NCBI GenBank assembly: GCA_021781555.1
Contig: JAJXWQ010000001.1
Location: forward strand, 7,392 to 71,391
Reading direction: 5' to 3'
From: a bacterium
GTDB lineage: Bacteria > Cyanobacteriota > Sericytochromatia > S15B-MN24 > VGJW01
Length of the DNA stretch: 64,000 bases
Part shown: positions 1,110-59,043 of the stretch, piece after piece
Layout of the letters: each line of letters starts with the position of its first letter
Position numbering within the stretch: position 1 is the stretch's first letter
Notes under the pieces: generated by a model
What the model saw: only the letters and a program-made list of their open reading frames with translations
What the model was told of the DNA's origin: nothing
The model's database searches: none
Made by a program: the position numbers and the translations under genes

Positions 1110-1111
1110 TC

Positions 1112-2547: not shown

Positions 2548-2680
2548 GCCGCACCTCAGGCGCTGGGCCCCTGGAAAGACCGTTGCTGCAGCGCCAGGAC
2601 GCGGCTCTGACCCGCAGCCGGAAGAGTTCAAGAGGGGCGACTGCCCGCTCTCGAGCCGCCGCGCGAGCGCAGCAAGGGAG

Positions 2681-4834
2681 TTGCCGGTGAGCGAAGCAGA
2701 GGGCCAGGGCTCGCTTGGCTTCGAACCAGAAGACATCAGGGCATTCCTCGAGGAATCCTGGTCGCACCTCGAAGCCCTGGAGAGCGGCCTCCTGGAGCTC
2801 GAGGAGGCGAGCGGAGCACCGCTCGATCCCGGCCGTATCAACGAGATGTTCCGCGCCGCGCATTCCATCAAGGGGGGTGCCGGACTGCTGGGCAACCGGC
2901 CGATCGGCAACCTCACGCACCACATGGAGAACCTGCTCGGGGCCGTGCGGGCAGGTCGGCAGGACCTGCTCGAGGCGGGCGCGGATGCCCTGTTCGAGGG
3001 CGTGGATGCCTTGCGCACGCTGCTGGTCGAGGTCCAGCACCGCCTGGAAGGCAAGGATCCCGCGCTGCTGCCGCCCTTCGATATCGCTCCCGTCGTGGCA
3101 ACCTTGAGCCAGCTCATGGAAGCCCCGATCGCAGAGGCGGGAGTTGCGATCGACCTGCCTTTCGACCTCGACGCCCAGCTCGGGGCCGCCCTGGGACCGG
3201 CGGCTCGGCATGCGCTCACCGACATCGAAGGCAAGTATCTCTACGAGCTGGATCTAGAGCTTGTCGGCTGTCGGCGCGGGGAGGAGGGGCTCGATCATCC
3301 TGTCCTCGAGAAGCTGACCAACCTTGGCACCGTGCTCGCGATGATTCCGCCCGATGCGGGAGCCGCCGACGGGCCTTTCACCTTCGAAGCCCGCGCCCTG
3401 TTCCTGACGAGTGCCGAGCCACCCCTGCTCCAGCTCTTGCTGCCTGGCAATGAAGTTCGTTTCGCCGTGGTTCCTGTCGATAAGCCCGAAGCCGAAGAAC
3501 TGGAGGCCGTCGTGCCCGCACCTCCGGTCGCCGCGGCAAGCCCGACGGCCGCAAGCGAAACACCCGCCGAAGGCACCCGCCCGGTTGCTGCCGGTGCGGC
3601 CCAGGGCAAGGGCCATTCCGGGCCCCACAGCGTGCGCGTCGACGTCGAGCGACTGGACCTGTTGATGGACGTGGTGGGCGAGCTCGTGATCAGCAACACC
3701 CGCCTCAATCGCATCGGTTCGGAGCTCGGGCGGCGCTTCGAGCGCGATCCCCTCGTGGGCACGCTGAATGACGCCATGGCGCACATTGCCCGGCTGGTCG
3801 GCGATCTCCAGGACAACGTCATGCGCGTGCGCATGATCCCGGTCGAGCGCGTCTTCTCCAAGTTCCCCCGCCTGATTCGCGATCTGGCCAAGCGCCTCGA
3901 GAAGGAGATCCGGCTCGACATCTTCGGCCAGGATACCGAGCTCGACAAGACCGTCGTCGAAGAGCTGGAGGATCCCCTCGTCCACCTGCTGCGCAATGCG
4001 GCCGACCACGGGGTCGAGGTCCCCGAGATCCGCACCGAGCAGGGCAAGCCTCGGATCGGCACCATCACGCTCGAGGCCCACCGCGAGGGCAGCTACATCG
4101 TCATCACCGTGGCGGACGACGGGGCGGGGATCGATCCCGCCCGGATCCTTGCCAAGGCTCGAACCCTGGGCCTGGTCGCCCATGACTCCAATCTCGACGA
4201 AGCCGAAATCCTTCAACTCATCTTCCTTCCGGGGTTCAGCACCGCCGCCAAGGTGACCGATGTCTCCGGCCGTGGGGTCGGGATGGACGTCGTGAGCCAG
4301 AACATCCGCAAGCTCAAGGGCAAGGTGGAGGTCGTGTCCAGCGTGGGGCAGGGCACCAAGTTCATCGTCAAGCTTCCGCTGACCCTGGCGATCACCCGCG
4401 CCCTTCTCGTCGCTTCCGGAGGCAGCGTCTTCGCCATCCCGCTCGACGCCGTCCGCGAGAGCATTCGGGTCTCGCCGTCGCAGATCCGGACGATCCAGCG
4501 CCGGGAGGTGATCCCGCTGCGGGACGAGGTCTTGCCCCTGTTGCACCTCGCGGAGGTCTTCAGACCGGCGGAGCCGCTCGAGCCGGCACAGGGCCTCCGG
4601 CCCGTCGTGGTGGTAGGCGGGGCCCGCAAACAGCTCGGGCTGGTCGTGGACTCGATCGAAGGGGAGCAGGACGTCGTGATCAAGCCGCTGGGATCGTACC
4701 TGGGCCAGATCGCGGGGATCGCAGGTGCCACGATCCTAGGTGACGGCCGCGTTTCGCTGATCCTGGACATCGCGACGCTCATCGACGAGGGCGATAAAAA
4801 AGGGCTCGAGCTGGCTCGCAAGACCGAGGCCTAG
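2681..4834 (+). CDS. cheA: chemotaxis histidine kinase CheA
   Basis: 717 aa; Hpt motif FRAAHSIKGGAGLLG, HATPase_c (ITVADDGAGID), C-terminal CheW-like domain. Confidence 0.92.
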   Translation: MPVSEAEGQGSLGFEPEDIRAFLEESWSHLEALESGLLELEEASGAPLDPGRINEMFRAAHSIKGGAGLLGNRPIGNLTHHMENLLGAVRAGRQDLLEAGADALFEGVDALRTLLVEVQHRLEGKDPALLPPFDIAPVVATLSQLMEAPIAEAGVAIDLPFDLDAQLGAALGPAARHALTDIEGKYLYELDLELVGCRRGEEGLDHPVLEKLTNLGTVLAMIPPDAGAADGPFTFEARALFLTSAEPPLLQLLLPGNEVRFAVVPVDKPEAEELEAVVPAPPVAAASPTAASETPAEGTRPVAAGAAQGKGHSGPHSVRVDVERLDLLMDVVGELVISNTRLNRIGSELGRRFERDPLVGTLNDAMAHIARLVGDLQDNVMRVRMIPVERVFSKFPRLIRDLAKRLEKEIRLDIFGQDTELDKTVVEELEDPLVHLLRNAADHGVEVPEIRTEQGKPRIGTITLEAHREGSYIVITVADDGAGIDPARILAKARTLGLVAHDSNLDEAEILQLIFLPGFSTAAKVTDVSGRGVGMDVVSQNIRKLKGKVEVVSSVGQGTKFIVKLPLTLAITRALLVASGGSVFAIPLDAVRESIRVSPSQIRTIQRREVIPLRDEVLPLLHLAEVFRPAEPLEPAQGLRPVVVVGGARKQLGLVVDSIEGEQDVVIKPLGSYLGQIAGIAGATILGDGRVSLILDIATLIDEGDKKGLELARKTEA

Positions 4835-4837
4835 GAC

Positions 4838-5797
4838 GTGGCGCCCCTATCCGTCACCCAGGGCGAGCTCCTGCAGCTCAAGGACCTCGTGCAGAGCTAC
4901 TGTGGCATCCGGGTCGAGGAGAGCAAGCTCGAGTTCCTCCAGGATCGGCTCGCCCCTGTCATCGCGGCGCAGGGTTTGAGCTCTCTTGGCGAGCTCTGCC
5001 AGCTGTTGCTGCGCGAGATCGCCTTCGGGAAAGACCTGGTCTGGAATACCGTCTTGCCGCTGGTCACGATCAACGAGACCTACTTCTTCCGCGAGCTGGG
5101 GCAGCTCCACGAGTTTCGAGATCGCGTGGTTCCGGCGCTCCTTGGTACCAAGTCCAGCCGCCAGCTCCGGATCCTCAGCGCCCCATGCTCGTCGGGCGAG
5201 GAGCCCTATACCCTGGCGATGTTGCTCGACGAGGCCCCGGTATCGCTGGCTGGCTGGTCCGTCGAGATCCTCGGCATCGATATCGATCCCGAAGCCATCG
5301 GCAAGGCTCGCACCGCCTTTTACCCGCATTCCGCCTTCCGAGCCACGGAGGAGCGCTACCGCGCCAAGTACTTCGCGCCGAAGGACGGCGGCCATCAGGT
5401 CGTACCGACCCTCGCGGGCAAGGCGCGCTTCATGCAGGCCAACCTCCTGGACCTTCCCAAGGATCGGGCGCTCGAGGGCTTCGACGTCATCTTTTCCCGC
5501 AACATGCTGATATACTTCGACAAGGCTACGCAAAGACGCGTCGTCGATCAGTTCCACCGGATGCTCAATCCCGGGGGGTACCTCTTTCTGGGGCACTCGG
5601 AGTCCCTGATGGGCTTTGACGTCGACTTCAAGCTCAAGGTGGCCAGCGAAGCCATCTACTACGAGAAGCCGATCCCGCAGGGCCCGACCTCGACTTCACC
5701 GCTGTCCTCCAGGGGAACCTCCCCCCTGCGGGCTCCGGGCACCTCTCCCCTGGCAGGTCCAGGATCAGCGCCACTACCTACTCGCGGTTCCATCTGA
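4838..5797 (+). CDS. cheR: chemotaxis protein methyltransferase CheR
   Basis: 319 aa; CheR N-terminal helical plus SAM-methyltransferase domain (ETYFFRE..., ILSAPCSSGEEPYTLAMLL, FSRNMLIYFD). Confidence 0.88.
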   Translation: MAPLSVTQGELLQLKDLVQSYCGIRVEESKLEFLQDRLAPVIAAQGLSSLGELCQLLLREIAFGKDLVWNTVLPLVTINETYFFRELGQLHEFRDRVVPALLGTKSSRQLRILSAPCSSGEEPYTLAMLLDEAPVSLAGWSVEILGIDIDPEAIGKARTAFYPHSAFRATEERYRAKYFAPKDGGHQVVPTLAGKARFMQANLLDLPKDRALEGFDVIFSRNMLIYFDKATQRRVVDQFHRMLNPGGYLFLGHSESLMGFDVDFKLKVASEAIYYEKPIPQGPTSTSPLSSRGTSPLRAPGTSPLAGPGSAPLPTRGSI

Positions 5798-13556: not shown

Positions 13557-15002
13557 ATGCTCCACGCAGGAGGCAATCGACCCATGACCGCGGCAATTCC
13601 CCGGCTCCAGGAGCTAGCGCGTTCCGAGGATGCCGGTGGGACGACGGGACTGGCGTCCTTTGCCGTCGACGCCAAGACCTGGGGCGATGTCATCCGGGCC
13701 GGCGTCCTGACGGCGGCGGCCAGGGGCGAAGCGGTTCTGGCCTTGCTGCCGTTCGAGGCCCAGGTGGGGGATCTTCGCCGCCGGGCGGGCGCGGATACGG
13801 CGATCGCGTGGCAGGGACCCGACGACGACTGCAGCTACCTGGGGCAGGGGTCGGCGTGGCGGGTCGACGCCTTCGCGCCTGAGGAAGTTGGTCCGGCCCT
13901 GGCGGCGGTCGAGCGGCAGATGCTCGCCACGGCGGAGCTGGCGGCCTCCTGCGGGGTAGCTACGGATTTTGCCCGCGCCTACGGAGGCCTCGCCTTCGAC
14001 GTCCACCGCCCTGCCGGCCACGCGCTGGCCGCATTCTCGGTTCCCGAACTCATGTTGCGCCAGCGAGCGAGCGACGCCGGCAGGGCCAGTGGCGCGGTCG
14101 CGGTGAGGGTCGAGGCGGGCGATACCGGGACAACGGTCGAGGATCGCGCTCGCCAGCTCCTGGCGGACTTCGCCAGGAGCCTCGAAACGCCGCCGCCCCG
14201 GCGGCCGGGCGGCAGCTGGCGGGTCGTGGACCCCGATCAGGGCCAGGAAGCCTACGCCGCGGCAGTTCTGAGCGCCGTCAGGGCCATTGCCGAGCGCCAG
14301 ATCGAGAAGATCGTCCTCTCGCGCGACGTCGAACTGGCTGGCGGCGATCCCTGGACCTCCTTCGAGAGCATGGCCCTCGCCGCTCCCGAGACGGCACGGT
14401 TCGCACTGGCCCTCGGCTCGGGGGACCTGCTGGTGGGGGCTTCGCCCGAGCGCCTGGTATCCATATCCGGCGGGGTCGCCCAGGCAGATTGCCTGGCCGG
14501 TACCGTCCTCGACGGTACCGCGGGGCCCGTGGTCAAGGAGCGGCGGGAGCACGAGGTCGTGGCGCGGGCGATCCGGACCTCGCTCGAGCCCCTGTGTGAC
14601 GAGGTCTTCGCGCCGCCCGAGCCCGTATGGCGTCCGGCGCCCGGACTCTTCCACCTCTGGAGCCCCATCGCGGCTCGCGTCTCGAAGCACGTGCCGCTCG
14701 GGGACGTCGTGCTGTCCGTCCATCCGACTCCGGCGGTCGGAGGCTGGCCGCGGGATCCCGCGCTGGGCATGATCCTGGAGCTCGAAGGCCGTCCCCGCGG
14801 GTGGTATGCCGGGGCCATCGGCTGGATCGGGGCGCGCGAGGCGGATTTCGCCGTGGGCATCCGGACCCTGCGCTGCCGGGGCGACCGCGCCACGCTCACG
14901 GTCGGGGCGGGGATCGTCGAGGGGTCGACCCCACAGGGCGAACTGGAAGAAACCGGCCGCAAGGCCCAGGCCGTCGTGAACCTCACCGCGGGGCGCCGAT
15001 GA
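13557..15002 (+). CDS. menF: isochorismate synthase MenF
   Basis: 481 aa chorismate-binding enzyme; C-terminal signature GGWPRDPA...GWYAGAIGWI...AVGIRTL...GAGIVEGSTPQGELEE. Confidence 0.88.
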   Translation: MLHAGGNRPMTAAIPRLQELARSEDAGGTTGLASFAVDAKTWGDVIRAGVLTAAARGEAVLALLPFEAQVGDLRRRAGADTAIAWQGPDDDCSYLGQGSAWRVDAFAPEEVGPALAAVERQMLATAELAASCGVATDFARAYGGLAFDVHRPAGHALAAFSVPELMLRQRASDAGRASGAVAVRVEAGDTGTTVEDRARQLLADFARSLETPPPRRPGGSWRVVDPDQGQEAYAAAVLSAVRAIAERQIEKIVLSRDVELAGGDPWTSFESMALAAPETARFALALGSGDLLVGASPERLVSISGGVAQADCLAGTVLDGTAGPVVKERREHEVVARAIRTSLEPLCDEVFAPPEPVWRPAPGLFHLWSPIAARVSKHVPLGDVVLSVHPTPAVGGWPRDPALGMILELEGRPRGWYAGAIGWIGAREADFAVGIRTLRCRGDRATLTVGAGIVEGSTPQGELEETGRKAQAVVNLTAGRR

Positions 15003-16891
15003 TCCCGGTGACCTTTTCGCCCGCCGCGTCAGAGCTCTCCGCCGGCGAGCCGGAAGGAGCAGGCGGGGCAGCCCCCAACCTGAACATACTCTGGGCGCGC
15101 GTGCTCTTCGAGGCACTGGTCTCGGCCGGTGTCCGGCACGTGAGCCTGGCCCCGGGATCCCGGTCGGCTCCGCTGGCGATCGCCGCCAGCAGCACGGCGG
15201 GCCTGCACACGACGGTCCATGTCGACGAGCGGTCCGCCGCCTTCTTCGCGCTGGGGGCGGCCAAGGCGACCGGCACTCCGGCAGCGGTGCTGTGCACGTC
15301 CGGATCCGCGGCAGGACACTTCCTGCCGGCCCTGATCGAGGCCGCCGAGGCGCGTGTTCCTCTGCTCGCGATCACCGCCGACCGTCCGCCCGAGGCCAGG
15401 GGGTTCAGCCCGCCGCAGACGATCGACCAGGTCAAGATGTACGCCCACGTCGTGAGGGCCGCGTGGGACCTGCCGCTCCCCGAGCCAGCCCTGCTCGCCC
15501 GGCTCGAGCTCCTCGCGGCCGACGCCGTGGCGCGTGCGACCGGGGCGCCCGTGGGTCCGGTCCAGATCAACGTGCCGCTGCGCGACCCCCTATCGCCGCT
15601 CGAGGTCGACGCCGACGCGATCGCAACCCTCGAGACCCAGCACCGGGCGCGCCGCGCTGCGATCCGGGGCTCGGTGGATGACCTCTCTCGGCGCGACGTC
15701 TGGCCCGCACGGGGCTTCGTCGACGAGATCGGCCTGGAGCAGGCCGTCAACTGGCTGTCGGAAGGCAGGCGCCCCCTCATCGTGGCAGGTCCGGAGGCGG
15801 CCTCGGGCCACCTGCGGAACGCGGTTCTCGAGTTTGCCCGCACGTGGGGCATTCCCATCCTGGCTGACGCGGCCTCGGGCTTGCGGTACGGGCCAGAGCG
15901 CGGGGCCACGGTCTGCTCGCACTACGTGGCCTTCTTGCGGGCCGCCGAGTTTGCCGAAACGCCGCCCGATCGCGTGGTCACCCTCGGCATGGCGCCGACC
16001 TCCGGGACGGTGGTGCGTTACCTCGCCCGCCACCGCCCTCCGCTGCTGCGCCTGCAGGCAGACCCACTCCGGCGCGATCCCGATGGACTGGCGGTCTTGA
16101 TGCTGGTGGGCGACGTGGCCGACGCCTGCCTCAGGCTTGCCGAACGCGCCGAGCGCACCTCGGCCGATCCGGCCTGGCGCGACGCATTTGCCAGCGCCGA
16201 TGAGGCGAGCGCCTTGGCACTGGCCGACTACGGCGATCCACCGGTCGAGATCGGCGCGTTGTCGGCTGCATTTGCCGCCTTGCCGGCTGATGGCATGCTC
16301 TTCCTGGCCAGCAGCATGGCCATCCGCTACGCCGATTCGTGCCTGCCTCCGGCCGAGCGGGAGGCGCGGGTGCTGGCCAATCGCGGGGCCAATGGCATCG
16401 ACGGCCTGACCTCGACGGCCCTCGGCGCCGCGGCGGCGACGGGCCGCCCGCTCCTGCTGGTCGTCGGCGACACCGCCTTTCTCCACGACCTTGGTGGATT
16501 GTTTGCGGCGCGGCACGTGACGGCGCCGGTCGTGATCCTGGTCCTCAACAACGACGGCGGGGGAATCTTCCACTACCTGCCGATCGCCCGGTTCCCCGAC
16601 AGTTGCACTCCACTTTGTATCAATCCGCACGGCATGCAGTTCGAGGCCGCAGCTCGCCTTTTCGGCCTGTCGTACCAGGCCTGCCGCAGCGGAGCCGAGG
16701 TGGCCCGGGCGGCGCAGGATGCCTTTGCCCGCGCGGGTGTCCACGTGATCGAGGTGCCCAGCGATCGGCACGACACCGAGGCGCGCTACCGGGCCCTGCT
16801 GGCAACCATGGCCGATGCGGCGGCGGGCCGGGGCCAGGCGTCGACCGATCGGACCGCAACGGCCATCGTTTCGAGGGAGGACACCTTATGA
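14999..16891 (+). CDS. menD: SEPHCHC synthase MenD (TPP-dependent)
   Basis: TPP-enzyme N-terminal domain ([17 protein letters not shown]...[17 protein letters not shown]) and TPP-binding C-terminal domain ([11 protein letters not shown]...[10 protein letters not shown]). ATGA overlap with the menF stop. Confidence 0.88.
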
Positions 16892-17733
16892 TCGCCAGCC
16901 CCGAGGCCCGCGCGGCCCTGCCGGTTTGGGAATCCGTCCGGGAGTTCCAGGACATCCGCTTCGAGATGGCCGAGCACATCGCCAAGATCACGATCAACCG
17001 CCCCGAGGTACGCAATGCCTTCCGGCCGGAGACCGTCGCCGAGCTCACCGAGGCGTTCCGCCTGGTCCGGGAGATGCCGGAAATCGGCGTGGCGATCTTG
17101 ACCGGGGCCGGCGACCAGGCCTTCTGCTCGGGCGGCGATCAGCGGGTGCGCGGCGACTCCGGGTACCGTGACGCCGAGGGCACCCATCGCCTCAACGTTC
17201 TCGATCTGCAGCGCCAGATCCGCTCCCTGCCCAAGCCGGTGATCGCCATGGTGGCAGGCTATGCCATCGGCGGGGGCCACGTCCTGCACCTCGTCTGTGA
17301 TCTGACCATCGCGGCCGACAACGCCCGCTTCGGGCAGACCGGCCCGCGCGTCGGCAGTTTCGACGGGGGGTTTGGCGCGAGTTACCTCGCCGAGATCGTC
17401 GGCGCGAAGAAGGCCAAGGAGATCTGGTTTCTTTGCCGCCAGTACGATGCCCAGGAGGCCCTATCCATGGGCCTCATCAACACGGTGGTCCCCCTGGCCG
17501 ATCTCGAAGGGGAAACGGTCGCCTGGGCCCGGAAGATCCTCGAGCACAGCCCGCTGGCCTTGCGCGTGCTCAAGTCGGCCTTCAACGCCGGGACCGACGG
17601 CCAGGCGGGGCTCCAGGAGCTCGCCGGCAACGCGACGCTGCTCTATTACATGTCGGACGAGGCCCAGGAGGGCCGAAACGCTTTCCTCGAGCGGCGGCCG
17701 CCGGATTTCGGGCGGTTCCCCCGGTTGCCATGA
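16888..17733 (+). CDS. menB: 1,4-dihydroxy-2-naphthoyl-CoA synthase MenB
   Basis: Crotonase fold with a MenB-specific N-terminus ([31 protein letters not shown]) and [12 protein letters not shown] overlap with menD. Confidence 0.92.
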
Positions 17734-18698
17734 GCGGCACGGAGGAGACCGGAAGCTCCCTCGGGGCGGCCAGGACAGCCTCGGCCGGACCTGACGCGCT
17801 CCCCCGGGCGCTGAGCCCCCTGCAAGTCTGGCTGGCAGGGAGCCGGCCGCGGACCCTGGTTGCCGGGGCCGCACCCGTGCTGGTCGGCGCCGCCGCGGCC
17901 TGGGGCGCTCCGGGTTACCGCCCGGTCGCCGTCTTGCTGGCGCTGATCGGAGCTTTGGCGTTGCAGGCGGCGTCCAACATGATCAACGACGTGGGCGACG
18001 GCCAGTCGGGCATCGACACGGCCCGGCGGGTCGGCCCCCTGCGCCTGGTCGCCTCGGGCCTGGCCGCACCTGGCCAGATGTGGCTGGCAGCCGGCACCTC
18101 GATTCTGATCGCGTTCATCGCGGGTATCGGACTCGCGCTGATGGCAGGCTGGCCGATCGTTGCCATCGGTCTGCTGGCCATCCTCACGGCCGCGGGCTAC
18201 ACCGTCGGGCCGGCCCCGCTCGGTCGCCTGGGCCTGGGAGAACTGGCCGCGTTCGTCTTCTTCGGCCCGGTCGCGGTGCTGGGCACGGCAGCCGCGGCGA
18301 CGGGCCGGTGGTCCGACCTGCCGCTGGTGTGGAGCCTCCCGACGGGCTTGCTGGCCGGCGCGCTGATGATGGCCAACAACCTGCGCGATCGTGAATCGGA
18401 CGCCGCCGTCGGCAAGCGAACGATCGCCGTTCGCAACGCCACTGCGGCCCGGCTTCTCTACCGGGCCATGATCGCCGGCGCGGTCGGCGTGCCGCTCGTT
18501 CTCTCGATCTGGAGCGAGCGACCGCTCGTGGCTCTGGCGGCGGGAGTCATGTCGCCCTTCGCGATGCGGGCGGCGCTCGCCATTCCAGGTGGCCGCTCCG
18601 GCCGCGAACTGGCGCCGGCGCTCGGGCGGATGGCCGATCTCTTCGCGGTCACGACTTTCGCTCTCGTGGCGGCGCTGATCGCCTCGCATGGAGCCTGA
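17730..18698 (+). CDS. menA: 1,4-dihydroxy-2-naphthoate polyprenyltransferase MenA
   Basis: UbiA-family polytopic membrane protein; [14 protein letters not shown] Asp-rich motif; [10 protein letters not shown] second motif. ATGA overlap with menB. Confidence 0.88.
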
Positions 18699-21423
18699 GC
18701 AGCTCGCCGGCCCGGTTGGCCAGGCCCTGGCGGGGGGCGCGGCGAACAGCTCGAGGCCGCCGCAGGCCGCATGCGAGCAGGGCCGGGATCTCGCGTCGGA
18801 CTCGCGGCGCCTGGTAGGGCTTGATATCAGACCCTACCAGAGGCCGATCGGTGGCGGGATGCCGGTCGGTGAGCGGGTGGGCTTCGAGCTCGTTCTGGTG
18901 GATGATGCCGGCCGGATCGGCCTCGGCGAGGTCGCCCCGCTGGCGGGCTTTGGCTCGGAAGCCCTCGCCGACGCCGAGGTCGCTTTGGCCGCGGCCCGGC
19001 GCAGCCTCGAGAGCGACCGGCCGCCGGCCCCACGAGAGCTCGACGAGGTCGGCCCGCTGCTGGCCGCCCTGGGTCTCGACCGCGATCGCACGCCCGTGGC
19101 CTATGCGGGTCTCGAGCTCTGCCTGCTGGATCACCTGGCGCGCCGGGCGGGTCGGCCACTTGCCGAGCTGCTGGCGGACTGGCCTGGTAACGGCGACGCA
19201 GCTCGACCGACCGGGGGCCGCGCTGGCTCCTGCAAGCGCGAAGTTCCCGTCAACAGCGTCGTCTCGGGCACCGACCCCCACCAGGCGGCGGCCGCCGCCG
19301 GCGCGGCCCGGGCTCTGGGATACCGGACGCTCAAGGTCAAGGTCGGCGACCTCGAGCCTCGCGAGGCGGTGCGCCGGATCGCCGAGATCCGGCGGATCGT
19401 CGGGCCCGAGGTCCTGCTACGGGTCGACGCCGCCCGGGCCTGGCCGCCGACCGAAGCGCGCAGGACTCTCGCGGATCTGGCTGCGCTCGACGTCGAGTAT
19501 GTCGAGGAACCCGCCGCGGATCTCGGCTTTCTGCTGGACGCTCTCGGCCACCGTCCCGACGAGGCGCTGGCCCCGATCGCGGCCGATGAGAGCGCCTGCC
19601 CCTCCGCCCTGGCGTGGCGCTGCCTGGCGTCCAGGGTGCGGCCCTCGGTCTTCGTCCTCAAACCCCTGCTCTTCGGGGGCCTGCTCGAGGCCCGCAGCTT
19701 CGCGCTGGCGGCGCTGGCGGCAGGGGCGCGGGTCGTGGTGACCTCGGCCTTCGAGGGACCTGTCGGTCTGGCCGCGGCCGTCCACCTCGCGGCCTCCTTG
19801 CCGGGCGCACCCGTCGCCTGCGGGCTGGCGACGGCGCACCTGTCGTGCGCTGGCGAGTTCTTGCCGGCCTGGCTCGCGCCGTCGGGGGGAACGCTGACGC
19901 TCGGCGACGAGCCGGGCCTCGGGCTCTCGTTACCCCCGTTCGAGCGTGCAGCTTCGCTGTGGCCCGATCGCCCGGCGCTCGCCATCGACGCTGCCGGGCG
20001 GACCGCGGTGCTGACGCACGGCGAGCTGGCCGATCGCGTGCGGACGGCGGCCGGCCGCCTGGCAAGCCTGGGGGTGGAGCCGGGGAAGATCGTGGGGCTA
20101 CTGGGCGAGAACAGCCTCGGCTGGATCGTCGCCCACCTGGCCCTGCCGCTGCTGAAAGGCGCCAGCTTGCCCCTCAACTTTCGCCTGGCCGATGCCGAAC
20201 TCCGCTGGCAGCTCGAAGCCGCGGGGGCCATCGGCATCCTGTCCGACCAGCTGGACCGGCCGCTGGGCCAGACCGCAGTCTGGCCCCTGTCGGACCTCCT
20301 CGACGCCCCGGACCAGCCGGCTGCCGTTGCCTCGGCGGGCGACGCGGTCGCCACGGGCCGGCCAGGCCTGGTGTCAGCCTTCGATCCCGCGAGCCCGCAC
20401 ACGGTGATCTTCACCTCGGGCACCACCGGCAAGCCCAAAGGGGTGGTCCTCACCGCCGCGCAGCACCAGGCCAGCGCCCGCTCCCTGATCGCGCACCTCG
20501 ACCTGGACGCGGACGATCGGTGGCTGCTGTGCATGCCCGTGTTCCATGTCGGCGGCCTGGGGATCGTGCACCGGATGATCGCCTGCGGCGGCATGGCGAT
20601 CCTGCTCGAGCGGTTCGACGTGGCGCGCGTCGCGACGGCGATCGAACGCTGGCAGCCGACCCGCGTCAGTCTCACGGCCACGATGGCCCGGCGGTTGCTG
20701 GCCGCCCACCCCACGATCCTTGCCGGGGTGCGAACCGTCCTGCTCGGCGGCGAGGCCATCGGGGCCGATTTGCTGGAGGCGATCCCGCAGGCGATCGCCT
20801 CCTACGGCCTTTCGGAGGCCGGCTCGACGGTCGCGGTCGCGGCGCCGGGCGAAAGCGCACTGCATCCGCTGCCGGGCTTCGAGCTCCGGATCGCCGAGGA
20901 CGGGACAGCCTGCCAGCCTGCCGAGGTAGGTCGCGTCGCCATCCGAGGGCCCGCGCTGATGCGGGGCTATCTCGGCGCGACTCCCCTGGATGGGGGCTGG
21001 TTCGAGACGGGCGATCTCGGCGTGTTTCGTCCCGAGGGGGGCTTCTCGATCCTGGCCCGGCGGGAGGACCTCATCCTGTCGGGCGGGGAGAATGTCTATC
21101 CCGCCGAGATCGAGGCCGCGCTGCTCGACCACCCGGAGGTCATCGCCGCCGCGGTGGCAGGGATTCCCGACCCGCGCTGGGGCCAGGTTCCGGTCGCCGC
21201 GGTCGTGCTGCGCGCCAGGTTAGCCGAGGGCGCAGCCCGGGTCCCTTTGGCGCCGGATTCGCCCGCGCCGAGCCCCGAGGAGCTCTCGGCCTTCGTCGGC
21301 GAGCGCCTGGCGCGTTACAAGGTTCCCAGGCAGGTCCGATTCCTCGCCAGCCTTCCGACCCGGCCCTCCGGCAAGCTCGACCGCCGGGCCGTCGCCGCTC
21401 TGTTTTCGCAGGACCCCCGGTAG
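18688..21423 (+). CDS. menCE: apparent fusion of o-succinylbenzoate synthase (MenC, N-terminal, about 420 aa) and o-succinylbenzoate-CoA ligase (MenE, C-terminal, about 490 aa)
   Basis: N-terminal enolase-superfamily motifs (LKVKVGD, DVEYVEEP, IAADES, VLKPLLFGG). C-terminal AMP-binding motifs (FTSGTTGKPKGVVLT, MPVFHVGGLG, LSGGENVYPAEIE, PSGKLDRRA). Uninterrupted ORF with no in-frame ATG or GTG at the junction. Confidence 0.75.
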   Translation: MEPEQLAGPVGQALAGGAANSSRPPQAACEQGRDLASDSRRLVGLDIRPYQRPIGGGMPVGERVGFELVLVDDAGRIGLGEVAPLAGFGSEALADAEVALAAARRSLESDRPPAPRELDEVGPLLAALGLDRDRTPVAYAGLELCLLDHLARRAGRPLAELLADWPGNGDAARPTGGRAGSCKREVPVNSVVSGTDPHQAAAAAGAARALGYRTLKVKVGDLEPREAVRRIAEIRRIVGPEVLLRVDAARAWPPTEARRTLADLAALDVEYVEEPAADLGFLLDALGHRPDEALAPIAADESACPSALAWRCLASRVRPSVFVLKPLLFGGLLEARSFALAALAAGARVVVTSAFEGPVGLAAAVHLAASLPGAPVACGLATAHLSCAGEFLPAWLAPSGGTLTLGDEPGLGLSLPPFERAASLWPDRPALAIDAAGRTAVLTHGELADRVRTAAGRLASLGVEPGKIVGLLGENSLGWIVAHLALPLLKGASLPLNFRLADAELRWQLEAAGAIGILSDQLDRPLGQTAVWPLSDLLDAPDQPAAVASAGDAVATGRPGLVSAFDPASPHTVIFTSGTTGKPKGVVLTAAQHQASARSLIAHLDLDADDRWLLCMPVFHVGGLGIVHRMIACGGMAILLERFDVARVATAIERWQPTRVSLTATMARRLLAAHPTILAGVRTVLLGGEAIGADLLEAIPQAIASYGLSEAGSTVAVAAPGESALHPLPGFELRIAEDGTACQPAEVGRVAIRGPALMRGYLGATPLDGGWFETGDLGVFRPEGGFSILARREDLILSGGENVYPAEIEAALLDHPEVIAAAVAGIPDPRWGQVPVAAVVLRARLAEGAARVPLAPDSPAPSPEELSAFVGERLARYKVPRQVRFLASLPTRPSGKLDRRAVAALFSQDPR

Positions 21424-52648: not shown

Positions 52649-53905
52649 TCAGTGGATGGTGTTGATGATGCTGAAGATCGGCAGGTACATGCCGATCACG
52701 ATGGATCCGACCAGCGCACCGATGAACACCATCATCAGCGGCTCGAGGAGGCTGGTGAGGGACTTGATGGTGTTCTCGACCTCGATGTCGTAGAAGTCGG
52801 CGACCTTCTCGAGCATCGAGTCGATCGCCCCGGTCTCCTCGCCGACCGAGATCATCTGCGTGACCATCGGCGGGAAGATGTCGGCTTTCTCGAGGGGCTT
52901 GGCGATACCCTCCCCCTCGCGGACGGCCTGGCGGATGTCCTCGACGGCCCCGGAAATGACCATGTTGCCCGCCGAATCCCGCACGATCTCGAGGGCGCTG
53001 AGGAGCGGGACGCCGCTTCTAAGGAGCGTACCGAGCGTCCGGGTGAAACGCGCCACGCCGACCTTCTGCGTGACCGGACCGATGATCGGGATCTGCAGCA
53101 GGTAGCGATCGATGAAATGCCGACCTTGATCCGTGGCAGCAAAACGGTTGTACGCGAAAGCCAGGAGGGCGACGCCCGCGACGATCGCCAGGCCGATCGG
53201 CCCCTTGACCGCGTTGGACAGGTTGATGAGGAACTGGGTGTAGGCCGGGAGCTTGGCGTTCATCTGCGCGAACATCCGCGCGAAGATCGGCAGGATGAAC
53301 ACGAGCATCGCGATGAAGATGCCGATGGCCAAGGTCATGACGACGAGGGGATAGGTCATCGCGGACTTGACCTGCCCCCGAAGCTTGGCGCTGGACTCCT
53401 GGAACCCGGCGGTGCGGCTCATGACCTCGTCCAGCACGCCGCCCGCCTCGCCGGCCCGGATCATGCCGACGTAGAGGTTGTCGAAGACCTCCGGATAGCG
53501 AGACAGGCAATCCGACAGCTGGGCGCCGGCCTCGACCCGGGCCTTGATGTCCTCGATGATCTTGCAAAGCTTGGGATTGGGGGTCTGCTCGGCCAGGATG
53601 GTGAGCGCCCGGACGATCCCGACGCCGGCGTTGATCATGGTGGCAAACTGCCGGCTGAAGACGCTCAGATCCTCGAGCCTGACGCGCTGCATCATCGCCA
53701 GACGGCGCTGCAGCTCCTCGAAGAAGGGCACGTCGGATCGCGACAGGTCGGCGAAGCGGTTCTCCCGCTTGACCGTCACCGGCGTGACGACCATGTAGCC
53801 CATCTCGCGCAGGCGAACGCGCACCTCGTCCGCGCTTTCGCCTTGCATGACCTTCATGAAGGCTTCGCCGCGGTGATCGCGGACCTTGCACTGGTAGGTA
53901 GGCAC
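52649..53905 (-). CDS. pilC: type IV pilus inner-membrane platform protein PilC (GspF family)
   Basis: 418 aa; duplicated GspF domains; three TM segments. Confidence 0.88.
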   Translation of the reverse strand: MPTYQCKVRDHRGEAFMKVMQGESADEVRVRLREMGYMVVTPVTVKRENRFADLSRSDVPFFEELQRRLAMMQRVRLEDLSVFSRQFATMINAGVGIVRALTILAEQTPNPKLCKIIEDIKARVEAGAQLSDCLSRYPEVFDNLYVGMIRAGEAGGVLDEVMSRTAGFQESSAKLRGQVKSAMTYPLVVMTLAIGIFIAMLVFILPIFARMFAQMNAKLPAYTQFLINLSNAVKGPIGLAIVAGVALLAFAYNRFAATDQGRHFIDRYLLQIPIIGPVTQKVGVARFTRTLGTLLRSGVPLLSALEIVRDSAGNMVISGAVEDIRQAVREGEGIAKPLEKADIFPPMVTQMISVGEETGAIDSMLEKVADFYDIEVENTIKSLTSLLEPLMMVFIGALVGSIVIGMYLPIFSIINTIH

Positions 53906-53925: not shown

Positions 53926-55041
53926 CTAGCGGAGGGGCTGCGCCATGGATTGCGTCATCGAGGATGTGGGAGCGGCCCCGATCATGCGGATCAGGTCATC
54001 GGGTCGCGAGGTCTTGCTGATGGCATCCTCGTACGAGATCAGGCGGTTGAAGTAGAGGTCCTTGAGGGCGTTCTCCAGCGTCTGCATGCCGAACTTCTGG
54101 CCAGTCTGGATGGCGGAGTAGATCTGAGCGGTCTTGCCCTCACGGACGAGGTTCGCGACGGCCGGCGTGTTGATCATGATCTCGAGGGCCATGACGCGGC
54201 CGCGCCCCCCCTTGCCGGACTCGCCGACCTTGGGGACCAGGGTCTGGGACAAGACGGCGACCAGACCGTTGGAGATCTGCACCCGGATCTGCTGCTGCTG
54301 GTGGGGCGGGAAGACGTCCACGATGCGGTCCACGGTCTGCATGGCGGAGCTGGTGTGGAGCGTACCGAAGACCAGGTGGCCGGTCTCGGCAGCCGTCATC
54401 GCCAGGCGAATCGTCTCGAGGTCGCGCAACTCGCCGACCAGAATGACGTCGGGATCTTCGCGCAAGGCAGCCCTCAAGGCGTTATCGAAGCTCTTCGTGT
54501 CGGCTCCCAGCTCGCGCTGATTGACAAGGCTCATCTTCGGCGAGTGCAAGAACTCGATCGGATCCTCGATCGTCAGGATGTGCTCGGCGCGAGATGAGTT
54601 GATATTGTCGATCATGGCGGCGAGCGTGGTCGACTTGCCCGATCCGGTCGGACCGGTCACGAGGATCAGCCCGCGCGGCTTGTGCGTGAGTTCGCGGATG
54701 AGCGGCGGCAGGCCGAGATCCTCGAACCGTGGGATCTTGGACGTGATAGTTCTGAGCACCGCCGCATAGGCGCCCTTGCTCCGGAAGGCGTTGACACGAA
54801 ACCGCCCCAGGCCCACGACACCGTAGGAACAGTCGAGTTCCATGGTCTGCTCGAGCGTCTTGCGTTGCTCGTTGCTCAGGATCGAGAAGACCAGGCGCTG
54901 GGTATCCTCCGGGGTGAGCGGATCATAGTCCGTCCGGACGAGCTTGCCGTTGATCCGGATGATCGGGGGCACCCCACCCGAAATATGGAGGTCCGATCCG
55001 TCGCGATCGAAGACGAGCTGGAGCAGCTCTTCCATGTACAT
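53926..55041 (-). CDS. pilT: type IV pilus retraction ATPase PilT
   Basis: 371 aa; Walker A LVTGPTGSGKSTT, Asp box, Walker B ILVGELRD, His box GHLVFGTLHT. Confidence 0.92.
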   Translation of the reverse strand: MYMEELLQLVFDRDGSDLHISGGVPPIIRINGKLVRTDYDPLTPEDTQRLVFSILSNEQRKTLEQTMELDCSYGVVGLGRFRVNAFRSKGAYAAVLRTITSKIPRFEDLGLPPLIRELTHKPRGLILVTGPTGSGKSTTLAAMIDNINSSRAEHILTIEDPIEFLHSPKMSLVNQRELGADTKSFDNALRAALREDPDVILVGELRDLETIRLAMTAAETGHLVFGTLHTSSAMQTVDRIVDVFPPHQQQQIRVQISNGLVAVLSQTLVPKVGESGKGGRGRVMALEIMINTPAVANLVREGKTAQIYSAIQTGQKFGMQTLENALKDLYFNRLISYEDAISKTSRPDDLIRMIGAAPTSSMTQSMAQPLR

Positions 55042-55108: not shown

Positions 55109-57013
55109 CTATACCCCGACGAGCGTGCCGCACGACGGGCAGCTCTTCCAGCTGTCTTCGAGGCGCTTGTTGCACGTGGGGCAGAGCTTCTTGAGATCGG
55201 CCTGGCAAAAGGGGCACTTCACGAACTCGTCGCCGATCGGATTGCGGCAGGATGGACAGAGTTTCTCCTCGCCCTCGCCCGAGAACGTGACGCGAATCAC
55301 TTCTTCGAGCGAGGTGTGCCCGTCCTTGACCAGCTTGAGCGAATAGTCCTTCAAGGTGATCATCCCCGCCTGCTTGGCGGCGTAACGAATGAGGGCCGTC
55401 GAGGCGCCGCGCGCCACCAGGTCGCGCAGCTCGTCGTTCATCTTCATGATCTCGTAGACGCCCATCCGACCCGAGTACCCTTTGCTGCACTGCGGGCACC
55501 CCACTGGCTTGTAGAAGGTGGGCAAGGCATCCACCTCGTACCGGAAGCCCACGTAGTCGAGCTCGCGGACCTCGGGGGTGTATGGCGCCTTGCAGGCGGG
55601 GCACAGGCGCCGTACCAGGCGCTGTGCGACGACCCCGAGGGTTGCCGAGGATACCAAGAAGCCTTCGACCCCCATCTCGTGCAACCGCATGATGGCCCCG
55701 GGGGCGTCGTTCGTGTGCAACGAAGTGAAGACCAGGTGGCCGGTCAGGGCGGACTCGATGGCGATCTTGGCCACCTCGAGGTCCCGGGTCTCTCCGATGA
55801 GCATGATGTCGGGATCCTGGCGCAGGAAGGCCTTGAGGACCCGCGCGAAGGTATAGCCGATGTCCGGGCGGACCTGGACCTGGGTGATGCCCGGGGCGTC
55901 GTACTCGATGGGGTCCTCGGCCGTCGAGATGTTGACATCGACGGTGTTGCGCTCGTTGAGAATGGAGTAGAGCGTGGTCGTCTTGCCCGAGCCCGTCGGA
56001 CCCGTGACGAAGATGATGCCAAACGGCCGACCAGCCATCTCCCGGACCAGCTCGAGGTCCTCGGGGTACGTAAAGAGCTTGTCGAGACCGATGGTCGTGC
56101 TGGATTTATCGAGGATGCGCAGGACCACCTTCTCGCCATGCTTGCTGGGCATCGTGGAGACGCGGAAATCGACGTCCCGATTCTTGAAGCGGACGCGAAT
56201 CCGGCCGTCTTGCGGCAGGCGCTTCTCGGAGATGTCCAGGCTCGCCATGATCTTGAACCGACTGATCAGCGCCGGCAGGTACTTCTTGGGTATCAGCGAC
56301 TGGCGGTGGAGGAGCCCGTCGATGCGGTAGCGAACCTGGACCTCGTTCTCGAACGGCTCGACGTGGATGTCCGATACCTTCTTGCCGCCCAAGGCCCCGG
56401 TCAAGATGGAATTGGCGAGCTTGATGATCGGGCTCTCCTCGGCCATCTTCTCGAGATCGGTGACTTTGAGGTTCTCTTCTTTTTGCTCGACGACGTCGAG
56501 TTCGTCGTCCGCGACGATCTCTCCGAGCACGGACGTGATGTCCGGCAGCGGGCCGCCCCCGGAGTCGCCCCCTTCCTCGGCCGGCTTCATCTGATCGAGG
56601 AACCAGAAGAACTCGTCCTCGGTGATGACGACCTGCTGGACGGTAACGCCCTTGAGCATGAACCGGACGTCATCGACCGCGATGAGATTCTGGGGATCGA
56701 CCATGGCCAGAGTCAGCCGGTTGTTGTTCAGCGAAATCGGAATGATCTGGTGCTGGCGCACCAGGTTATCCGGAATGAGGCTCAAAACCTCGGGCGGCAC
56801 CTTGGTCTTGCGAAGGTTGATGTAGCGGAGGCCATATTGCAGCTCCAGGGCATCCTTGATGCTGGCCTCGGTGACGTATCCCTGCTTGATGAGGATCATC
56901 CCGAGGGATTCCTTGGATTGCTTCTGGATCTCCACCGCCTGCTTGAGCTGATCGCCCGATATCAGGTTGGCATTGAGCAGGATCTCCCCCAGCTTCATCT
57001 TGACGATGGCCAC
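55109..57013 (-). CDS. pilB: type IV pilus extension ATPase PilB (GspE family) with extra C-terminal double zinc-ribbon
   Basis: 634 aa; N-terminal GSPII_E_N domain, Walker A FVTGPTGSGKTTT, intrinsic tetracysteine (CPACK…CPQCSKGY), plus an extra C-terminal tail CPSCRNP…CPFCQ…CPTCNK…CPSCG. Confidence 0.92.
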   Translation of the reverse strand: MAIVKMKLGEILLNANLISGDQLKQAVEIQKQSKESLGMILIKQGYVTEASIKDALELQYGLRYINLRKTKVPPEVLSLIPDNLVRQHQIIPISLNNNRLTLAMVDPQNLIAVDDVRFMLKGVTVQQVVITEDEFFWFLDQMKPAEEGGDSGGGPLPDITSVLGEIVADDELDVVEQKEENLKVTDLEKMAEESPIIKLANSILTGALGGKKVSDIHVEPFENEVQVRYRIDGLLHRQSLIPKKYLPALISRFKIMASLDISEKRLPQDGRIRVRFKNRDVDFRVSTMPSKHGEKVVLRILDKSSTTIGLDKLFTYPEDLELVREMAGRPFGIIFVTGPTGSGKTTTLYSILNERNTVDVNISTAEDPIEYDAPGITQVQVRPDIGYTFARVLKAFLRQDPDIMLIGETRDLEVAKIAIESALTGHLVFTSLHTNDAPGAIMRLHEMGVEGFLVSSATLGVVAQRLVRRLCPACKAPYTPEVRELDYVGFRYEVDALPTFYKPVGCPQCSKGYSGRMGVYEIMKMNDELRDLVARGASTALIRYAAKQAGMITLKDYSLKLVKDGHTSLEEVIRVTFSGEGEEKLCPSCRNPIGDEFVKCPFCQADLKKLCPTCNKRLEDSWKSCPSCGTLVGV

Positions 57014-57241
57014 TTGAGAGTCGAGCCTCCTTATCCAGCCTGCAAAACGCGGCCCCTCTTCCGGGAGGGGAAGCCGCCATGATCCTATACCCGGCCAGGA
57101 ATGCGTTGCGCCAGGATCCCCCCGTACCTGGTATGGGCCCCGCCTGAAAGCCCTGCCCTACTGGCCGCTGGAACCAGCCCCGTTGGACTTCTCGGCCCTG
57201 GTCCTGCCGGGTAAACCCGCTCGGGTCCTCGGCCACCGCAG

Positions 57242-58834
57242 CTAGACGCGCTCGGAGGACTCCGAAATGGCCATCCACACGCCCGTGAGATCCAGGGCAT
57301 CGAGGCCCTGGCCCACGACGCCGAGGACTCCGACGTCCAGACCGACGAGCATCAACAACCCTTCGGAGGTCTCGAGCACGCCCCAGCCCAGGCCGCCGAT
57401 CTGCATCTTCTTGCACTGCACATCGAGGTTGGAATACATCGACGAGGCGATCGCCCCGACCATCTCCTTGTCGAGAGCAGAAGGCAAAGTGCTGGAGATG
57501 ACGAGGCCATCCCGGCCGACGATGAGGGCACCGGACACGCCCGCCACCTGGGTGATCTGAGCCAGGAGCTGATCGATGTCCTGCCCACGGGTCGCCGAGA
57601 TGATCCGCGTGGTTGCAGCCCCGCCTGCACCGCGTTGTTCAGCCTTGTCCAGGATGCGCTTCAGAGCGTTCTGATCCACCAGCATCTTGCCGATGGAGAC
57701 CAGGCCCTCTGGCCGGGCTTCCTGGCCAGGCTTACCACCTGGTGGAGCCGGGATCGGCGGCGGTGGAACCGGCCGGGCCGGAGCGGCAGGAGGAACCGAC
57801 GCGGGCGCGGCGGGCAGGTCGAACGGAGCCGGATCGAAGGCCGGAGCCGGGTCGAAAGCAGGCTGGTCGAAGACGCCCTGGTCGAACGCCGGAGCCTGGT
57901 CGAACGATGCCCCGAAATCGCCAAGCTCGCCCCCCGCAGGGAAGGCCGGCAGATCGGGAAAGGCCTCGTCGGAAGGCGCGCCACCAGACAACCCGGGCGG
58001 CTGGATACCAATATCGGCAAAAGCCTGATCGAGGGCTCTCGAGAGGTCTGGAGCCACAGGAGGCGGTGAGGCGCTCGCGGCCTCGGCCACGATGGCATCC
58101 ATGGTGGCCAGGATATCGTCGCCCATCGCGGCGGTGTCCGGGTGGGCCGCAGGGCGGGGAGCGGGTGGCGGAGGTGCCGCGGCCTGAGGCGCCGCGCCCC
58201 GTTCCGGGGCCTGACCCGTCGTCTCGAAGCTGTCGAAGAGGGAGTCGAGCGAATCATCGACTCCACCGGGAAACAGGCGGCTGGCGTCGCTGGCCGACAA
58301 AGGAGCTGCCGCCGCCGGAGCCGCGGCGGCCGCCGCGAGCTGCGGTCGTGCAGGTGGGGCGGTCGTCGCCTCGGTCCCGAGGGCACCCTGCTGGCCGTAG
58401 TTGGCCACAGCGTCCTGGTAGCCGGCGGCGTATCCGCCTCCGGCCGTGTAATCGAAGTCAGCGAATTGCTGGGACACGCTCTGGCCGCCCTCGGCCTGGG
58501 CACCGGCATCTTGCCATTGCTGGTTTGAATCCCACTGCTGCTGCTGCTGGTTTGGATCCCACTGCTGCTGCTGGTTTGGATCCCACTGCTGCTGCTGGTT
58601 TGGATCCCACTGCTGCTGCTGGTTTGGATCCCACTGCTGCTGCTCGGGCTCGGGCGCGGGAGCCGGCCTGGGCGACGGCTTGCGCGCCTTGCCCTTGGCA
58701 CCCTTCTTGGTGCCCTTGGCCGGAGTTTTCTTCTTGCCGCCAGATAGCGCCGAAAAAAGTCCTGCGAGAAAGCCTTTCTTCGCGGGCTTCTTTTTGCCCT
58801 TTGTTGCGGGCTTCGCCTTAGCCTTGGAAGCCAT
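57242..58834 (-). CDS. Roadblock/LC7 (MglB-like) domain protein with long disordered N-terminal region (Lys-rich, five QQQWDPN repeats, Ala/Pro-rich, PAFD repeats)
   Basis: C-terminal 120 aa matches the Roadblock/LC7 fold signature (ITQVAGVSGALIVGRDGLVISS…EMVGAIASSMYSNL…LLMLVGLDVG). It is the first gene of the pilBTC operon. Confidence 0.65.
   Translation of the reverse strand: MASKAKAKPATKGKKKPAKKGFLAGLFSALSGGKKKTPAKGTKKGAKGKARKPSPRPAPAPEPEQQQWDPNQQQQWDPNQQQQWDPNQQQQWDPNQQQQQWDSNQQWQDAGAQAEGGQSVSQQFADFDYTAGGGYAAGYQDAVANYGQQGALGTEATTAPPARPQLAAAAAAPAAAAPLSASDASRLFPGGVDDSLDSLFDSFETTGQAPERGAAPQAAAPPPPAPRPAAHPDTAAMGDDILATMDAIVAEAASASPPPVAPDLSRALDQAFADIGIQPPGLSGGAPSDEAFPDLPAFPAGGELGDFGASFDQAPAFDQGVFDQPAFDPAPAFDPAPFDLPAAPASVPPAAPARPVPPPPIPAPPGGKPGQEARPEGLVSIGKMLVDQNALKRILDKAEQRGAGGAATTRIISATRGQDIDQLLAQITQVAGVSGALIVGRDGLVISSTLPSALDKEMVGAIASSMYSNLDVQCKKMQIGGLGWGVLETSEGLLMLVGLDVGVLGVVGQGLDALDLTGVWMAISESSERV
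58518..58646 (-). repeat. in-frame 21-bp tandem DNA repeat (about six units) encoding QQQWDPN
   Basis: CTGGTTTGGATCCCACTGCTG reiterated with one variant unit. Confidence 0.85.
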
Positions 58835-59043
58835 CAGTGTTGGGGGACTCCTTAAGCTCCGCTCCCCGCGGGCGTTTTGGTTGTGAACCGGAGCGCGTGG
58901 CGATGCCCGGCGAAAGTTAAACCTATGATACCCCGCCGCATGAATATATCACGACAGCCTGGCATTGGCTCGGGGAGCCGAACCGAAGGGCACGACCTTC
59001 GCTGGGGCCCACCAATGCCTGCATCCGTGCGCCTTGCGCCCGG

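Follow-up and report, generated by a model that had tools for sequence, protein, structure and literature searches.

In a 64,000-nucleotide (nt) stretch of DNA from an uncultured bacterium of the Sericytochromatia (Cyanobacteriota; GenBank assembly GCA_021781555.1, contig JAJXWQ010000001.1, positions 7,392 to 71,391 of the forward strand; hereafter the window), the gene immediately before the type IV pilus motor genes pilB-pilT-pilC encodes a 530-amino-acid (aa) protein that ends in a Roadblock/LC7 domain. The gene occupies 57242..58834 of the minus strand, and homologue and profile searches divide its product into a predicted membrane anchor, an acidic disordered linker, a conserved extension and the Roadblock domain. 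We put the chances that this protein is a membrane-tethered Roadblock scaffold acting on the type IV pilus motor at about even, and those that its function is in some way pilus-related slightly higher. A pilus role is suggested because the gene is kept directly before pilB-pilT-pilC in one large clade and because Roadblock proteins have precedents in type IV pilus systems, namely MglB, MglC and the Roadblock genes of archaeal type IV pilus loci. A connection between Roadblock proteins and type IV pili is already known; what appears to be undescribed is the anchored architecture with its multivalent motif, and the family as such.

The open reading frame (ORF) was confirmed in the window, where its ATG at 58834 is the first start codon past the upstream in-frame stop. 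It is preceded by an AAGGAG ribosome-binding site (RBS) at 58848-58853, and its GC content by codon position (0.72/0.53/0.76) is consistent with a coding frame. Domain matches identified the genes downstream on the same strand as pilB (extension ATPase, 55109..57013), pilT (retraction ATPase, 53926..55041; TIGR01420, 502.8 bits against a cutoff of 319) and pilC (platform protein, 52649..53905), which bears out the placement of the gene in an earlier note made from the letters of this stretch. Upstream lie pheT and pheS. The intergenic gaps are 209 nt between pheT and the Roadblock gene, 228 nt between the Roadblock gene and pilB, 67 nt between pilB and pilT and 20 nt between pilT and pilC. About 90 nt upstream of the Roadblock gene there is a promoter-like site, GTGATA-16-TATCAT (58925..58952, minus strand), recognised by consensus match only.

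The Roadblock/LC7 domain with its C-terminal helix (aa 415-530 plus the stop codon, 57242..57592, minus strand) was recognised by Pfam, by PDB sequence matches, by AlphaFold2 (AF2) and by Foldseek. Robl_LC7 (PF03259), present in all relatives, scored 30.3 bits over aa 420-498 against a gathering cutoff of 23, and PDB Roadblock sequences were matched at E=1.2e-6 from the single sequence and at 2.3e-10 from the family profile. The AF2 model of the domain shows the a-b-b-a-b-b-b-a topology at a predicted local distance difference test score (pLDDT) of 85-95, so that the hidden Markov model (HMM) search and the structure prediction were both positive for the Roadblock/LC7 assignment that the earlier note had made. 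Foldseek returned a probability of 1.00 for 7yh1, 9jue, 6izw, 6hjm and LAMTOR2, with template-modelling scores of 0.75-0.83 to Roadblock, MglB and LAMTOR2 structures overall and 0.70-0.77 to MglB alone. The nearest solved structures are the archaeal (Asgard) Roadblocks 7yh1, 9jue and 7f8m. When the PDB was searched with the family profile, the matches at E<=1 were Asgard Roadblocks, CvnB5, Rv3364c, dynein Robl and LAMTOR2, and no MglB chain was among them. Because Asgard Roadblocks, MglB and LAMTOR2/p14 are about equally close in Foldseek, the window domain is a generic Roadblock fold with nothing specifically MglB-like about it. Its last helix (aa 516-527) is not acidic, and the protein stops three residues later.

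Ahead of the domain, three elements are conserved across the family: the N-terminus, an acidic motif and a pre-Roadblock extension. The N-terminal 60 residues of the window protein (58655..58834, minus strand) are Lys-rich, with 20 K/R and 0 D/E (net charge +20), and surround a hydrophobic patch of 12-13 residues, KKGFLAGLFSALSGGKKK (58736-58774). In relatives this basic-hydrophobic-basic segment is conserved as KKGFLAGLLAGFGGGKK, with the hydrophobic GFLAGL patch and not the lysines as its core, and this core resembles the membrane-targeting sequence KGFLKRLFGG of Escherichia coli MinD (PMC5471200). Other members carry transmembrane helices in place of the polybasic segment, one in P0024, L034 and P0074 and three to four in proteins beginning 'MYKL'. 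The variants of the family N-terminus thus comprise the polybasic type, a signal peptide with one transmembrane helix, the 'MYKL' type and an HxxxCxxC zinc-finger-like type found in Melainabacteria/Obscuribacter members. We infer that the N-terminus of the window protein is a membrane anchor, mainly because the basic amphipathic segment and true transmembrane helices share the same position.

The linker of the window protein, about 310 aa long and disordered, has a net charge of -33, and family linkers are always rich in Pro, Ala, Gly, Ser, Gln and Glu. Within it, family alignment revealed an acidic amphipathic motif, LFPGGVDDSLDSLFDSFE (aa 187-204, 58223..58276, minus strand), with an AF2 helix over 192-200. 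Further on, at aa 237-276 (58007..58126, minus strand; AF2 helices 241-250 and 264-274), lie DDILATMDAIVAEA and LSRALDQAFADI, two helices that look like degenerate versions of the motif, a likeness judged by eye only. Across the family, 157 copies of the motif LFxxGVDxSLDSLF, or [LM]F-x4-[LV]D-x-[SDE]-[LI]D-x-[LI]F, were extracted, with one to nine copies per protein (nine in L034), and the full-length alignment shows no variation at L196, D197 and F200. The motif may be a partner-binding helix. The third element, GLVSIGKMLVDQNALKRILDKAEQRG (aa 373-414, 57593..57718, minus strand), is predicted to form a beta-hairpin and a helix, at low to moderate model confidence. In the family it is an extension of about 40 aa, GLVSIGKLLVDQNTLKRII, contiguous with the domain, with the consensus GLVSIGK(L/M)LVDQNxLKRII and with columns G10, K11, L13, D15, L19 and I22 invariant (alignment A1). 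Family members match the profile from about position 4 and generic Roadblock proteins only from about 42-48; the window protein scores 244 bits over profile positions 1-156. A relationship between the extension and the PilB MshEN/c-di-GMP (cyclic di-GMP) helix motif was rejected, since hhalign of A1 against PilB N-termini gave a probability of 0.7% and E=0.076 over 16 columns.

These three elements had gone unnoticed in the earlier note, whose emphasis fell on repeats that proved to be lineage-specific. Its prediction of N-terminal disorder stood: the full-length AF2 model is disordered over aa 1-375, with block-mean pLDDT below about 65 almost throughout (blocks 91-110 reach 72-74) and with a few short helices. 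All four parts that it had named, the Lys-rich patch, the Gln/Trp repeat, the Ala/Pro tracts and the PAFDP repeats, are present, and only the repeat unit required correction, from a heptad to eight residues. This octad, QQQQWDPN, recurs about five times at aa 64-104 (58523..58645, minus strand; 24-nt period, 5.2 copies, 96% matches), the string QQQWDPN appearing four times together with one QQQWDSN. It is absent from relatives, which have other Trp-containing repeats such as GWQAPAEG in P0019/P0022, and is a recent expansion specific to this lineage; conserved in no relative, it was rejected as a conserved functional element. The (P)AFD(P/Q) repeats at aa 308-340 (57815..57913, minus strand; 18-nt period, 4.9 copies, 74% matches) include six FD motifs at aa 310-340. 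Repeats of the AFD type are common only to the nearest relatives, P0001 and L044, which carry DAPAFGD repeats. The N-terminus of P0026, a 355-aa Bax1-I (PF01027) membrane protein from another source, is also rich in QWDPN and QQQQW, a likeness that we judge to be low-complexity similarity without homology.

The window protein has 25 close homologues of 335-648 aa, every one of which ends in the same extension and Roadblock module; those that are named are Candidatus Sericytochromatia or Tanganyikabacteria, and this class falls within the Cyanobacteriota/Melainabacteria group. When 1.84 billion cluster representatives were searched exhaustively with the profile, 43 clusters matched at E<1e-30 and 260 at E<1e-10; in these the module is always C-terminal and sometimes tandem-duplicated, in proteins of up to about 1,600 aa. 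Eight large members were scanned, and no further Pfam domain exceeded the gathering score. Named members outside Sericytochromatia are Obscuribacterales or Melainabacteria, together with a few metagenome-assembled genomes (MAGs) auto-labelled as cyanobacteria (Oculatellaceae, Chroococcales). There was no model organism and no characterised member among the family matches, and a characterised cyanobacterial orthologue was likewise sought in vain, as homology search and cluster look-ups gave MAG proteins only and literature searches turned up none. Among the larger forms, L051:5775-8456, L049 and P0063-P0067 are proteins of about 900-1,190 aa with three to four N-terminal transmembrane helices and two tandem modules. 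Nine proteins of 1,000-1,600 aa from Melainabacteria/Obscuribacter (P0166, P0178, P0183, P0185, P0187, P0190, P0194, P0196 and P0197) begin with the HxxxCxxC segment, which looks like an anti-sigma-factor zinc finger in place of the membrane anchor and is not called by Pfam. Distant Roadblock matches in Vulcanimicrobiota, Synergistia and Bacillota MAGs (L018-L022, L055, L056, L063, L071 and L073) belong to a separate conserved two-gene arrangement: the first gene encodes about 870-885 aa with two weak Roadblock-like matches, and a 118-aa Roadblock gene comes directly after it. There is no pilB within 10 kb of these pairs.

The adjacency of the Roadblock gene to pilB, to which the earlier note had drawn attention, is no one-off. 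In a neighbour-joining tree of the module, one major clade (clade B) contains 24 pilB-linked and 3 unlinked members out of 27 distinct ones, and it spans 27-70% GC and PilB identities down to 56%. In all 13 of 13 GTDB species-level loci pilB lies 38-134 nt downstream of the Roadblock gene (robl), although these loci say little alone, because the whole rpsF-ssb-pheST-robl-pilBTC-radical-SAM block is collinear among Sericytochromatia. The linkage also holds at loci with different neighbours. A transmembrane-anchored member, L032, has its stop codon 3 nt before pilB, with pheT adjoining the gene. The clade of L029 and L033-L037 has no pheT, with a phosphonate ABC transporter upstream and a sigma factor downstream, and its order is robl, a 108-109-aa paralogous Roadblock gene and pilB-pilT-pilC, with gaps of 2 and 28 nt in L029. 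At L017, pilT and pilC lie apart and the robl-pilB junction is kept. The small Roadblock protein (L029:940-1269, L034:8477-8803, and also L033 and L035-L037) shares VQIKRMQRG..RRLVLETE with the domain of the large protein, of which it is a paralogue, and this suggests a heterodimer. No second small Roadblock gene was found in the window, where the family HMM detected a single Roadblock in six-frame translations. Two further loci deserve mention. At L050:835-2952 the gene after a family member encodes a GAF-GGDEF-EAL-REC protein, which combines c-di-GMP turnover with a receiver domain. The L006 contig is labelled Stenomitos sp., a filamentous cyanobacterium; it is probably mis-binned, because it has the pheT-robl-pilBTC order of the Sericytochromatia MAG L008 and a module of nearly identical sequence.

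Among known systems, the closest comparison is with MglB of Myxococcus xanthus and Thermus thermophilus, the Roadblock GTPase-activating protein (GAP) of the Ras-like GTPase MglA, which acts in type IV pilus and gliding polarity. Like MglB, the window protein has the Roadblock fold, an association with type IV pili and an acidic amphipathic helix on a disordered linker. Unlike MglB, it has a predicted membrane anchor, a disordered linker of about 310 aa and a pre-domain extension, and in sequence its domain is no nearer to MglB than to the remaining Roadblock subfamilies. The D/E-rich helix of MglB lies C-terminal to the domain (Baranwal et al. 2019), whereas the acidic motif of the window protein is far N-terminal and occurs in up to nine copies in the family. 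Wuichet and Sogaard-Andersen (2014) took mglA coupling within four genes as their criterion, and 328 of their 749 MglB homologues were orphans, none of them characterised at the time. The window gene has no such coupling and by this criterion is an orphan Roadblock; P-loops in the 64-kb window occur only in PilB, PilT and one out-of-frame ORF inside pheT, none of them a small GTPase, in agreement with the earlier note's statement that no GTPase gene is adjacent. MglB and MglC are both Roadblock proteins that set type IV pilus polarity, MglC being a paralogue without GAP activity that serves as an adaptor, and in RomR a disordered Pro-rich linker is joined to a C-terminal helix, rich in Glu, resembling the MglB C-terminal (Ct) helix (PMC9481161; PMC6785124, including its S7 Fig legend). 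With MglC and RomR the analogy is functional only, as the window protein has no receiver (REC) domain and no mglA/mglB linkage and comes from another taxon. The window protein would appear to work most like MglB or MglC, yet lacks the MglB membership features that we tested.

Other systems are alike in part. The polar hubs FimV, HubP and TspA of type IV pili have a membrane anchor, a very long disordered cytoplasmic region that is acidic and full of repeats, and, at the C-terminus, a small protein-binding domain by which pilus regulators are recruited. This layout is alike on paper but without homology, for the head domain of the window protein is a Roadblock, and neither LysM nor a FimV C-terminal/TPR module was found in it (Pfam gave Robl_LC7 only and NCBIfam nothing). 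CvnB of the actinobacterial conservons is an MglB-type Roadblock in a membrane-associated signalling complex, and cvnB5 (3leq) ranks with the strongest PDB sequence matches. In conservons the genes for a kinase, CvnC and the GTPase CvnD adjoin that for CvnB (PMC4316618), and all three are missing from the window locus. The earlier note had not recognised the arrangement as described, and we found no paper describing a Roadblock-pilB arrangement; there is nevertheless a precedent in archaea, where Roadblock genes of arCOG02603 often lie in type IV pilus loci, with neither a GTPase partner nor a function assigned to them (Makarova et al. 2016, PMC4858521). The window gene shares with arCOG02603 its place in or next to a type IV pilus locus. 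The solved Asgard Roadblocks that match are single-domain proteins of 94-131 aa, in contrast to a bacterial protein of 530 aa with linker, motifs and predicted anchor.

If the protein does act on the motor, its N-terminus would lie on the cytoplasmic face of the inner membrane, like the membrane-targeting sequence of MinD, with relatives using transmembrane helices instead. The Roadblock module would dimerise and, in one clade, probably pair with the adjoining small paralogous Roadblock; dimerisation is, to our knowledge, common to all known Roadblock domains. The dimer and the tethered acidic helix motif or motifs would then jointly bind a nucleoside triphosphatase partner, as the MglB dimer and Ct-helix bind MglA. 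This partner could be an MglA-like GTPase encoded elsewhere, or PilB or PilT themselves, and the outcome would be control of where or when the pilus ATPases engage the pilus base.

A number of observations weigh against this reading, which is plausible and rests on a circumstantial link. The Obscuribacterales sister clade (L049/L051/L097/L098, whose closely related clusters are named Obscuribacter or Obscuribacterales) has the order pheS-pheT-robl-peroxiredoxin (AhpC/TSA), with no pilB. Because this clade keeps pheST-robl without pilB, pheT is the oldest conserved neighbour, shared by Sericytochromatia, L032 and Obscuribacterales; linkage to pilB is a clade-level trait and not a property of the entire family. 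The closest relative of the window gene, L044 (74% identical, with AFGD-type repeats), has a convergent HlyD/M50 gene downstream instead of pilB, and two further clade-B members also have no pilB downstream; L044, L039, L030 and L050 are all unlinked. In the protein itself, AF2 shows no helix in the segment of aa 1-60. A linked MglA-type GTPase was looked for as the partner and rejected, since no small GTPase is encoded in 537 kb of family loci or in the window.

The spacer between the Roadblock gene and pilB (57014..57241, minus strand) counts on the same side. At 228 nt it is the longest such gap of all loci, and it contains a promoter-like element, the -10-like GGGTATAGG at 57084-57092 (minus strand), 79 nt before pilB, as well as a short hairpin, CCCCTC...GAGGGG (57053-57070, minus strand), and the strong AAGGAG RBS of pilB (57027-57032, minus strand). 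Rfam gave no match at E<=1 in the spacer or in the region upstream. An intrinsic terminator between gene and pilB was rejected for the window, as the terminator scan made no minus-strand call and only the short hairpin and four T's stand after the -10-like element. In L014 a strong GC-rich hairpin and TTTTT directly follow the Roadblock gene, L006 is similar, and one Sericytochromatia subclade (L005/L007/L011/L040/L052) conserves GGGTACAAT 73-98 nt before pilB; we regard these as candidate terminator and promoter elements. The pattern GGGTAYNNT was also considered as a promoter signature of the lineage and set aside as too weak to use, with 9 matches against 3.5 expected, 9 being reached in 1 of 100 shuffles, and with the pilB copy misfitting the strict pattern. 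In Sericytochromatia pilB may well have its own promoter, and only loci with gaps of 2-28 nt (L032, L029) make co-transcription likely. Co-transcription of the window gene with pilB is unproven, because the gap is 228 nt long and holds a promoter-like element and because some relatives have a hairpin with a T-tract. The words 'operon' and 'hard-wired' in the earlier note were therefore too strong, the more so as L044 and the Obscuribacterales members are unlinked.

The main rival explanation is inherited synteny only, in which the protein would be a general membrane-associated Roadblock scaffold, serving for example an unlinked small GTPase or another envelope process, and its adjacency to pilB mere gene-order inertia inside one class. 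The conserved pheT-robl adjacency, the unlinked members, the promoter-like and terminator-like elements of the spacer and the collinear Sericytochromatia block all fit that account. Yet the robl-pilB junction is kept even where every other junction has changed, at L034 between a Phn transporter and a sigma factor and at L017 with pilT and pilC separated; it persists over the full range of PilB identity and GC content in clade B, and it tightens to 3 nt in L032 and to 2 and 28 nt in L029. On this evidence we hold inherited synteny to be a real possibility, though an unlikely one. A different departure from the MglB model would dispense with the GTPase. In such a hub the Roadblock dimer and extension would dock PilB/PilT hexamers directly, perhaps through an extra C-terminal zinc ribbon of PilB, and the one to nine acidic motifs, similar to the MglB Ct-helix, would bind in trans, so that the multivalent, membrane-tethered protein would give a condensate-like network at the pilus base. 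PilB in the window has an MshEN N-terminus and a T2SSE ATPase domain (420 bits), with an MshE-type c-di-GMP-binding motif at aa 7-59 (NF053729, 57 bits against a cutoff of 38), and past the canonical ATPase end it carries a double zinc ribbon (DZR) with four CxxC pairs at aa 586-629. Relatives have the ribbon as well (DZR in L001, L004 and L032; DUF7575 in L029), and a regulator might dock on it. We consider this hub improbable; were it true, a motor ATPase of the secretion type would be under direct Roadblock control with no small GTPase involved, which would parallel in prokaryotes the presence of Roadblock on dynein.

The acidic motif bears on the remaining explanations. As it is also present in the clade unlinked to pilB, it points to a partner common to the whole family and not specific to pilB, for example a GTPase or the module of the family itself, and this too tells against a motor-specific role. 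A motif profile built from 36 copies and searched against all PDB sequences gave a single match, ten residues of the M. xanthus MglB C-terminal tail (DDDIDNLFSE), at E=6.9, which is weak and not significant alone. In MglB this Ct-helix, carried on a disordered linker, docks into an allosteric pocket on MglA (PMC6785124). We record the lead since the sole match is a functional peptide of the best-known Roadblock protein, when CheZ had been predicted. Another explanation would be a docking scaffold for CheY-like response regulators, in which the acidic motif would act as the CheY-binding peptides of FliM and CheZ do and would gather phosphorylated regulators of a chemotaxis-like pathway at the membrane near the pilus motor. 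By eye GVDDSLDSLFDSF resembles CheZ QDQVDDLLDSLGF and VDSEIDEIFSNL resembles FliM SQAEIDALL, both peptides being confirmed, and the GAF-GGDEF-EAL-REC protein of L050 would suit such a role. So would a complete chemotaxis-type operon at 27-5797 (plus strand) of the window, encoding a methyl-accepting chemotaxis protein (partial, at the window edge), CheW, CheX, CheY, CheA and CheR, which could feed pilus control; it lies about 52 kb from pilB, however, and is unlinked in relatives. Acidic amphipathic helices are common, moreover, and at E<=10 the profile retrieved MglB and not CheZ, leaving this docking role very improbable. The 20 K/R in aa 1-60, a segment which we take to resemble AKP-rich basic tails, could also be read as a Lys/Ala/Pro-rich histone-H1-like DNA-binding tail that tethers the protein to the nucleoid rather than to the membrane. 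That seems hardly credible to us, given that relatives carry a transmembrane helix, or more than one, in its place and that the conserved core is hydrophobic. Elsewhere in the window, the region of highest GC (0.70-0.74; 14627-21423, plus strand) encodes a MenD-like thiamine pyrophosphate enzyme, and a 911-aa protein in which a MenC-like domain (enolase superfamily) is fused to a MenE-like one (AMP-binding), for menaquinone-type biosynthesis.

Roadblock proteins are best known for partnering small GTPases, and MglB is at the heart of the bacterial choice of the pole for pili. The family described here gives orphan Roadblocks a concrete context, with a defined architecture, a defined taxon (the non-photosynthetic sisters of cyanobacteria) and a recurrent neighbour, pilB-pilT-pilC. 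As the organisms are uncultured, the immediate impact is limited and experiments would be heterologous or computational. If the link to pilB is functional, the membrane-tethered scaffold would show how the activity or position of the pilus motor is organised in Sericytochromatia/Melainabacteria, and whether the tethered acidic helix of MglB exemplifies a mechanism general to Roadblock proteins.

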